Below are positions 1-138 of a DNA stretch of 11,593 nt, piece by piece (within the stretch, counting starts at the first letter, position 1; the number at the start of each line of letters is the position of its first letter). The translations under genes and the position numbers were made by a program. The stretch lies in the sequence record PV067697.1, one strand, 5' to 3'. The DNA comes from Enterobacter phage Entb_47. The notes under the pieces were generated by a model. That model was given only the letters and a program-made list of their open reading frames with translations, did no database searches and was not told where the DNA came from.

Positions 1-138
1 CCCCGTTCGTGGATTCATTTCCCCGCGTGATTATTAGTTGACTAACGATTGTGGATGTGATAGCGAGATTGATTGCAAATGAAATGATTAGCATGATAAC
101 GATAACGGGAGTGAGGGCTAGGGCTAGGGTTCGTTATC
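1..138. repeat. Left inverted terminal repeat (ITR). It is the reverse complement of 11456-11593 and the right copy extends 5 nt further (CTCTC). Internal short iterons are GATTG x3, GATAAC x2 and AGGGCT x2.5.
   Basis: Direct comparison of window start with reverse complement of window end: identical from ccccgttcgtgg... through ...ggttcgttatc, then diverges. Confidence 0.9.

Follow-up and report, generated by a model that had tools for sequence, protein, structure and literature searches.

The genome of Enterobacter phage Entb_47 (sequence record PV067697.1), which has been analysed here at its whole length of 11,593 nucleotides (the window), opens and closes with the same sequence in inverted orientation. 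The question raised by this locus is whether the terminal repeats are real and hold the origins of replication, and whether the bases at which the assembly stops are also the physical ends of the DNA. Our analysis has shown that the repeat is the genuine inverted terminal repeat (ITR) of a phi29-like podophage. We consider with good confidence that it belongs to a linear, protein-primed genome and that it comprises a core origin with an unassembled terminal reiteration, an accessory interior and ragged assembled ends.

Inverted terminal repeats and gene content

Positions 1-138 were found to be the exact reverse complement of positions 11451-11588 (138 nt, at the two ends of the genome), and five additional bases, CTCTC (11589-11593), are present at the right end only. 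The repeat measures 143 nt from the right end, and past it the arms differ (TATTTC on the left, GTTTTC on the right). The first-pass annotation had described 143-bp terminal repeats with a right end longer by these five nucleotides, and the exact match bears out this description. The left copy (1..138, + strand) is without the outermost 5 nt of the right end and, judging from relatives, probably lacks an estimated 5-11 nt more, and the right copy (11451..11593, - strand), 143 nt as assembled, probably stops 5-11 nt short of the physical end.

The - strand encodes a helix-turn-helix (HTH) protein, a 40-aa membrane protein, a 206-aa putative terminal protein, a PF03175 polymerase, a gp16-type packaging ATPase and a phi29-type connector, together with a capsid protein (Phi29_MCP), a lysin and tail proteins; the + strand has three small ORFs, which are located at the left end. 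The family-B DNA polymerase of the protein-primed type (8303..10414, - strand) matches PF03175 with an E-value of 6e-14 and 52 bits (cutoff 25.8). Its sole PDB match is phi29 polymerase (E 2.4e-6), in an alignment covering phi29 residues 136-463, which we take to include TPR1 and TPR2. It was also found to be nearer to the polymerase of phi29 (E 1e-12) than to that of PRD1 (E 2e-5).

The gene of the putative terminal protein (10423..11043, - strand) directly precedes that of the polymerase, an arrangement also found in phi29 and PRD1. Its product is a member of a large conserved family with an invariant T92-S93 and has conserved tyrosines at Y57, Y113, Y136 and Y149. The assignment is based on gene position, size, the conserved family and the literature. 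A counterpart of p3 in the Gram-negative phi29-like group has been reported from HMM searches (PMC11476376), and a review of 2024 describes the group as phi29-like phages of Gram-negative bacteria with counterparts of the polymerase, the terminal protein and the SSB (PMC11476376). Searches in Pfam and PHROGs, with a family HMM against phi29 p3 and PRD1 P8, and with a profile against PDB sequences gave no usable match for a terminal-protein identity. The AF2 model has a pLDDT of 63, and Foldseek against the PDB returned an empty result. The first gene of the right end encodes the 68-aa HTH protein (11176..11382, - strand), which has a weak PF01381 match below the Pfam cutoff and a gene position conserved across the family.

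The presence of a protein-primed-type polymerase together with the gp16 ATPase, the connector and the phi29-type capsid protein allows the ITR to be taken as real, and its two copies most likely hold the replication origins, one each.

Relatives and classification

The nearest genomes are those of Astrid, astrithr and assan, DU_PP_III, Phanie, S.Kent and Vibrio phage K58 g2. Entb_47 has the genome size (10-12 kb), gene order and gene families of the Astrithrvirus-like phages, and its genes for the HTH protein, terminal protein, polymerase, ATPase, connector, capsid, tail and lysin, with small ORFs in the opposite arm, follow the gene set and order of the Astrithrvirus-like phages ('cluster 23' of PMC11476376). 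The best megablast matches cover 24-40% of the genome at 75-82% identity. ICTV practice places the limits at a nucleotide identity of about 70% for a genus and 95% for a species, and with a coverage of at most 40% Entb_47 falls in the same wider group, outside the genus Astrithrvirus and the named species Astrithrvirus astrithr. Searches of a plasmid collection and of a collection of complete E. coli genomes gave no match.

The HTH protein, the putative terminal protein and the polymerase are closest to those of DU_PP_III (61, 65 and 82% identity, respectively), and the capsid protein (93%) and one left-arm ORF (83%) are closest to Astrid, to which the ATPase is 79% identical. Moreover, the Astrid type has in common with Entb_47 a 24-nt block and a module of GATAACG, GGG array and TTCGKTATC in the ITR interior. 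By these sequence comparisons the Entb_47 genome is a mosaic, with replication genes nearest to DU_PP_III and with capsid and ITR interior nearest to Astrid. In the database records the ITR amounts to 219 nt in DU_PP_III and 171 nt in Phanie, whereas the records of Astrid, astrithr and assan hold 84 or 18 nt of it (84 nt in Astrid) and the ITR of Entb_47 extends further out.

Layout of the genome ends

About 100 related loci, fetched via the polymerase, and several isolate genomes were compared at their termini. In five independent complete relatives the end reads 5'-GGGNWA (in four of them GGGNTATCC), followed by a C-rich box at about bases 6-20 and by a (T/A)CCCC box at base 30-35, and in four of the five the ends are identical on both genome sides. 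The complete termini are GGGATATCCGCCCCCCCCCCGTTCG in DU_PP_III, GGGTTATCCGCCCCCCTCC in Phanie, GGGCTATCCTCCCCCCTCCCCC in Vibrio phage K58 g2, GGGTTATCCCACCTCCCC in L080 and, for the right end only, GGGTAAGTACCCCCCCCCTCCCC in L088. A more distant genome, L099, begins with GGGATATATAAG. In L050, an Illumina adapter is joined directly to GGATATAGC at one end and to TATAGC at the other, and this fusion marks the physical ends of the DNA.

Both boxes can be recognised in Entb_47. The sub-terminal C-rich tract CTCTCCCCC (C-box 1; 11585..11593, - strand), of which the left copy retains only CCCC (bases 1-4), aligns with the C-boxes of Phanie, Vibrio phage K58 g2, L080, L088, phi29, Cp-1 and PRD1. 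In case of DU_PP_III, CCCCCCCCC-GTTCG aligns with CTCTCCCCC-GTTCG and CCCCCGTTCG is common to the two phages, and DU_PP_III has 11 further bases outside. C-box 2 (TTTCCCC; 18..24, + strand, with a mirror copy at 11565-11571, - strand) corresponds to the (T/A)CCCC box of the five complete relatives. It starts at base 25 from the right end of Entb_47 as compared to base 30-35 in all five, a distance to the contig end which is shorter by 5-10 nt than in any of them. In the sister contig L136, the HTH protein is the same as that of Entb_47 and the N-terminus of the polymerase is 96.7% identical; this contig carries CCCC at the position of the Entb_47 CTCT and also starts in the C-run (C14). Altogether nine contig ends, those of Entb_47 and eight others, begin inside a C-run.

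The right end is most probably truncated as well as the left, because the layout of the relatives, the distance to C-box 2, the eight other breaks in the C-run and the CCCC of L136 all point to it. CTCTCCCCC is then most probably C-box 1, a sub-terminal element and not the terminus. By comparison with the relatives, about 5-11 nt would be missing from the right end and 5 more from the left. The first-pass annotation had left it open whether the left terminus was truncated or the ends were genuinely unequal; truncation on the left is retained and genuine inequality is not. Assembly raggedness at the physical DNA ends offers the best explanation, at the level of sequence comparison, for both the 5-nt difference and the missing terminal reiteration.

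Two other explanations of the ends have to be weighed. According to one, the right end as assembled (5'-CTCTCCCCC) would be the true terminus, with CTCT or C5 serving for jumping-back or sliding-back and dCMP as the initiating nucleotide, much as the earlier annotation had proposed in taking CTCTC with the following C5 for the terminal repeat. CTCTC is indeed the last sequence of the contig, nothing beyond it is found in data from the Entb_47 lineage, and a (CT)2 could formally allow a two-base jump, as compared with the adenovirus 3'-GTAGTA (PMC5175343). However, a difference of 5 nt between the ends of one contig means that at least one of them is ragged, the C-box stands behind GGGNWA in the complete relatives, the second box is too near to the end, the same C-run interrupts other contigs and the CTCT is replaced in L136, so that this explanation appears improbable and the proposed terminal repeat is not sustained. 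The other would make the ITR an assembly artefact (a hairpin chimera) or the genome circular or concatemeric. Its chance is negligible: the general fact that assemblers can make terminal inverted duplications is all that favours it, whereas ITRs with homologous blocks are present in independently sequenced isolates and in metagenomes, the end repeats are inverted and not direct, transcription of both arms runs inward from the ends and the polymerase is of the protein-primed type. The comparison with related contigs, which had been suggested as a check, has thus upheld the ITR but not the CTCTC terminus.

With ragged ends as the preferred explanation, the sliding-back repeat is probably the unassembled GGG (3'-CCC in the template), as suggested by the ends of the relatives. 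AAA is less likely. Two independent Astrid-type assemblies, L084 and L105, both begin with AAATCCCAC at a distance to box 2 which fits a complete end; therefore, the terminal triplet varies within the group and that of Entb_47 could be AAA. The predicted GGG end was reached by no read or contig of the Entb_47 lineage in Logan or among the ENA contigs, which were looked up through the putative terminal protein and the end-proximal genes. The Logan contigs all start about 30 nt outside the inner ITR boundary, as would be expected of a k=31 assembly that breaks at the repeat, and the ENA contigs end in or before the C-run, those of L137 and L122 being shorter than L136. One contig, L135, is at odds with the layout, having 55 nt that are not C-rich outside C-box 2, and may be chimeric. 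A 20-mer of the outer ITR had 0 matches in viral_contigs, and a scan with the consensus GGGNTATCCNCCCCCC returned 91 stretches which were mostly internal and uninformative.

Motifs and conservation of the ITR interior

The interior of the repeat was compared with L105 and L084 of the Astrid type and with the close relatives L121, L122, L123, L136, L137, L110, L115 and L135. A 24-nt block, GTGATTATTAGTTGACTAACGATT (27..50, + strand; mirror 11539-11562), which holds the palindrome TTAGT-tg-ACTAA (34-45), is identical in L105 and L084, where the polymerase is only 57% identical, and in L122, L135, L136 and L137. A scan of the collection with this 24-mer also returned L105. The segment ATTAGCAYGATAACGATAACG, the GGG-N3 array and TTCGKTATC at the ITR boundary are likewise conserved, whereas the GATTG stretch, the loop bases of the G array (CTA, CAT, TTA, TTC) and the number of GGGCTA units (2 or 3) are variable.

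The inner module (95..138, + strand; mirror 11451-11494) consists of two GATAACG copies (95-101 and 101-107), a GGG-N3-5 array (107-129) and an inverted GATAACG (132-138), by which the array becomes the loop of an inverted repeat. In the left arm, AGGGCT occurs twice and is followed by AGGGTT. GATAACG has nine copies in the genome as compared to 1.4 expected, and six of the nine lie within the two ITRs. The run GGGAGTGAGGGCTAGGGCTAGGG is confined to the ITRs and was met in 0 of 2000 shuffles, and none of the 2000 attained the total of repeated 5- and 6-mers in the ITR. Of all 150-nt windows in the genome, the terminal ones are the most repeat-rich (6 repeated 7-mers against an internal maximum of 5).

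The GATTG, GATAAC and AGGGCT repeats are present where the first-pass annotation had placed them, and the third, inverted GATAACG had been overlooked there. The three GATTG copies (47-51, 67-71 and 71-75, + strand) fall within the least conserved stretch of the ITR. They were rejected as a significant repeat, since 45% of dinucleotide-shuffled ITR sequences contain some 5-mer three times and one copy of the overlapping pair at 67-75 is lost in the sister lineages L136, L137 and L122, which read GACGATGATTGC. The earlier proposal of binding sites is supported to the extent that some of the motifs are sufficiently conserved to remain candidates, and this GATTG copy is not among the conserved ones. 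The term iterons, under which the repeats had been introduced, was found to be a misnomer: they are only 5-7 nt long, the plasmid type consists of several direct repeats of about 17-22 bp with a neighbouring gene for the Rep initiator that binds them, and none of the ORFs of this genome was found to be Rep-like. A 43-aa GTG ORF in the ITR (51-182, mirrored in the other copy) is regarded as fortuitous, since it crosses the ITR boundary. The ITR of Entb_47 has no DnaA box or sigma54 motif, and neither a significant Rfam match nor a fold better than shuffles was obtained for a pRNA or other RNA gene in or near it.

Possible functions of the ITR interior

An early promoter is predicted next to each copy of the repeat, both predictions being consensus matches only. 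On the right, TTGACG-16-TATAAT (11415..11442, - strand; 11 of 12 consensus positions, with TG) has a -35 hexamer beginning 8 nt inside the ITR boundary and would drive the genes of the HTH protein, the 40-aa ORF, the putative terminal protein and the polymerase. On the left, TTGGCA-18-TATATT (167..196, + strand; 10 of 12) lies 28 nt inside the boundary and would drive the three small + strand ORFs (235-1194). The interior is most likely a protein-binding accessory region upstream of both early promoters, to judge from its conservation and position, and the HTH protein is a candidate for one of its readers. It is unlikely to be the sole reader, because the motifs persist in the Astrid type, in which the HTH protein is only 29% identical.

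The interior may instead be mainly a shared transcription-control region, with operator or activator sites by which both arms are co-regulated, lying outside the origin. The chances of this explanation are appreciable, though somewhat below even. The short distances between the predicted sigma-70 promoters and the ITR boundary speak for it, as do the ITR of DU_PP_III, which takes in a TTGAC promoter region, the HTH protein as product of the first gene at the right end, the sigma54-type promoters which relatives have at most about 140 nt from their contig ends, where the ITRs lie, and the 5+5 palindrome inside the 24-nt block. On the other hand, phages of the Astrid type retain both the 24-nt block and the GATAACG motifs despite their divergent HTH protein, and the distance to the -35 hexamer is unequal at the two ends. 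Moreover, the sites are candidates and an auxiliary-origin role is compatible with transcription control. A further explanation, which we regard as unlikely, is that the inner module acts as a single-stranded DNA structure, in which a three-tier G-quadruplex would lie within a GATAACGA/TCGTTATC stem on the displaced strand, the one linked to protein at its 5' end; such a structure could stabilise that strand or mark the ITR boundary, e.g. in panhandle formation. When either strand of the ITR is folded as single-stranded DNA, no element is stable except a hairpin, AACGATAACG/CGTTATCGTT, whose loop is the G array, and with quadruplex folding enabled a stem-enclosed three-tier G4 is predicted at -16.3 as compared to -8.0 kcal/mol. 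The canonical motif (at least four G3 runs with loops of 1-7 nt, here G3-N(3-5) x4) is exclusive to the ITRs, was found in 0 of 2000 shuffles and is kept in L121, L110 and L137, and the stem and the GGG runs are retained in these natural variants and other relatives while the loop bases change. Against this, L135 and the Astrid-type phages have three G-runs only and no predicted G4, GGGCTA is present in 2 or 3 copies, a variation like that of a tolerant tandem repeat, and the whole ITR folds no better than its shuffles (z = 0.0 and -1.4).

Proposed mechanism of initiation

With the interior taken as an accessory region, the following scheme can be put forward. The sequence data show the repeat, the genes, the terminal layout across the family and the conserved blocks, whereas we infer which bases are missing, which nucleotide initiates and whatever concerns the binding of proteins. 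The outer 35 bp or so would form the probable core origin, made up in order of a short terminal reiteration, C-box 1 (CTCTCCCCC) and C-box 2 (TTTCCCC), with 13 nt as a spacer between the boxes. The missing reiteration is most likely 5'-GGGNTATC, to judge from those complete relatives that are closest; DU_PP_III, Phanie and K58 g2 show an end of this type whereas the assembled Entb_47 is without one. The right end of the + strand is accordingly predicted to read ...GATANCCC-3', which is 5'-GGGNTATC on the outward-read strand. Terminal protein and polymerase would bind as a heterodimer to the DNA end with its protein cap. Opposite an internal base of the 3'-CCC repeat, the first nucleotide, predicted to be dGMP, would be joined to the terminal protein. 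Sliding back would then recover the end, and strand displacement replication would follow as in PRD1 and phi29. Sliding-back after initiation at an internal base has been documented for phi29 (3'-TTT) and PRD1 (3'-CCCC, with dGMP), and jumping-back for adenovirus and Bam35 (PMC5175343). The inner 110 bp or so would serve as the accessory region, of which each end has one copy immediately upstream of an early promoter that faces inward, and would most likely bind DNA-binding proteins of the phage or the host.

Patterns across the group and their significance

Across 59 loci, not all of them independent, the terminal regions have 9.5 repeated 7-mers per 150 nt as compared to 2.4 internally, and the elements found there differ between lineages. 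The sigma54-type TGGCAC-N5-TTGC is always near an end and points inward (L012, L031, L040, L044, L059, L124). Perfect DnaA boxes are present in L061, which has seven, and in L062; 27-nt tandem repeats occupy the terminal region of L021, and GTTCCACGTGRAAC palindromes and CGAACC repeats occur in those of other loci. It may be speculated, with a probability that we place well below even, that the ITR is built of two parts, a deeply conserved core origin of about 35 bp and an exchangeable, lineage-specific accessory cassette. The core would comprise the terminal triplet, a TA-rich step and the two C-boxes, common to Cp-1 and partly to phi29 and PRD1. The cassette would be the GATAACG/GGG-N3 hairpin in Entb_47, maybe a stem-enclosed G-quadruplex, and DnaA boxes, sigma54-type promoters or 27-nt repeats elsewhere. 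Provided that such cassettes serve to bring in factors of the host or the phage, whether to protein-primed origins or to early promoters, they would correspond, in bacterial systems, to the auxiliary origin of adenovirus.

The reference records of astrithr, assan and Astrid hold merely the inner 18-84 nt of their ITRs and Entb_47 apparently lacks bases at either end; caution is advisable, in this group, with genome lengths, origin models and the label 'complete genome'. For these very small podophages of Gram-negative bacteria, the prediction is that the genome ends in 5'-GGG(N)TATC and that the priming nucleotide is dGMP. A defined origin which functions in Gram-negative hosts would help protein-primed amplification systems and minimal replicons.

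Comparison with known systems

The Entb_47 ITR is that of a protein-primed phi29-like phage with a known mechanism, and the finding fits within this mechanism and leaves the current understanding unchanged. Like Entb_47, phi29 has a protein-primed family-B polymerase with the terminal protein gene (putative in Entb_47) just upstream, and a sub-terminal C-rich tract, AAAGTAAGCCCCCACCC, at the start of its genome. It differs in having an ITR of 6 bp only and in encoding a pRNA, for which Entb_47 gave no Rfam match, and the phi29 terminal protein has no detectable sequence similarity to the putative one of Entb_47. Cp-1 (NC_001825), a phi29-like podophage with a 236-bp ITR, has the outer layout of Entb_47: its genome starts with AAAGCATGTACTCCCCCACCCC, followed after 11 nt by TTCCCCC at 34-40, and its C-box 1, CTCCCCCACCCC, occupies bases 12-22. 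However, Cp-1 has a Gram-positive host, a 19-kb genome and the terminal triplet AAA in place of the GGG predicted for Entb_47, and the ITR interiors of the two phages were found to share no detectable similarity. The terminal triplet and C-box layout thus recurs in Cp-1 and the Entb_47 group and partly in phi29 and PRD1.

In case of PRD1, the terminus GGGGATACGTGCCCCTCCCC...CCCC (32-35) closely resembles the group consensus of GGGNTATCC, C-box and CCCC at about base 33. PRD1 also has a Gram-negative host, but it belongs to a different virus realm and its P8 is not similar to the putative terminal protein of Entb_47. Because the Entb_47 polymerase is nearer to that of phi29, the PRD1-like GGG..ATA..C-box end is regarded as a shared origin design and not as a tectivirus module. 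The adenovirus ITR has a short core origin at the very end and auxiliary sites for host factors further in. This architecture is comparable to that of the Entb_47 group, in which some relatives of Entb_47 have host-factor motifs (DnaA boxes, sigma54-type promoters) within the ITR or close to it, and the likeness is one of analogy only and not of homology.

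Mosaic genome of Enterobacter phage Entb_47

Comparison of the genes and ends with those of the relatives shows that the genome of Entb_47 is a mosaic. The HTH protein encoded by the first right-end gene, the putative terminal protein and the polymerase have their nearest relatives in phages DU_PP_III and S.Kent. The capsid protein (93% identity), orf76 (83% identity) and the interior of the inverted terminal repeat (ITR) are nearest to phage Astrid, and the tail protein (1610-3592) has at most 40% identity to any relative. The left early operon and the late operon which converges on it are separated by a strong hairpin (1211-1232, AAGCCCCC..GGGGGCTT) that resembles a bidirectional terminator and has T-runs in either strand.

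Completeness of the terminal repeats

Of the ITR, no more than 18 nt are retained in the public genomes of phages astrithr and assan, and 84 nt (1-84) in that of Astrid. Two independent metagenome contigs, L105 (11586-11733) and L084 (1-150), carry the Astrid-type repeat 64 nt further, for a length of 148 nt; in both of them its first bases are AAATCCCAC. Library adapters or primers are retained in several public contigs of the relatives, including the right end of L014. Both genome ends of L050 are joined to an Illumina adapter, the ends of L012, L013 and L060 carry a SISPA-type primer (GTTTCCCAGTCACGATA) and the left end of L082 is a Nextera end.

An odd end is found in L135, a JGI contig encoding the same HTH protein as Entb_47, in which positions 1-60 include 55 nt of non-C-rich sequence beyond the second C-rich box and the ITR has about 50 nt extra inside. 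This contig is either chimeric or carries a different ITR variant.

Motifs at the ends of related loci

In L061 and L062, loci of a relative whose polymerase identity is about 61%, perfect DnaA boxes (TTATCCACA) are present in tandem spacing within the terminal ~115 nt, seven at 11017-11107 of L061 and four at 13-59 of L062. A search of the Entb_47 ITR with one mismatch tolerated found no DnaA box.

The sigma54-type promoter consensus TGGCAC-N5-TTGC was searched in the related loci and in Entb_47, and gave eight matches across six related loci, all of them inward in orientation and no more than about 140 nt from a contig end. These are located at 23-37 in L012, 63-77 and 120-134 in L031, 42-56 and 10396-10410 (minus strand) in L040, 10822-10836 (minus strand) in L044, and 30-44 in both L059 and L124; the consensus search returned no match in Entb_47. 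Phage early promoters dependent on sigma54 would be unusual.

Three small IMG/VR contigs carry GGGATATCCGCCCCCCC at 12-17 nt from the contig end, preceded by ..GGGGAAT (18-33 in L167, 13-28 in L200 and 1993-2008, minus strand, in L206), and these contigs may be members of another linear-element family with a similar origin.

Putative terminal protein

The gene of the putative terminal protein lies on the minus strand at 10423-11043, and its product belongs to a family with more than 1,600 relatives in the databases, for which no Pfam or PHROG family was matched. T92-S93 is invariant inside a TSTV(K/R)G motif and Y57, Y113, Y136 and Y149 are nearly invariant; the conserved residues, these four tyrosines among them, are candidate priming residues. 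Two relatives with ~65% identity, P0136 and P0139, are labelled at NCBI as Klebsiella pneumoniae and E. coli. Complete E. coli genomes and plasmids gave no match to the Entb_47 sequence. Among the nearest named phages, Phanie is cited as a satellite phage dependent on a helper myophage (reference 13 in PMC11476376).
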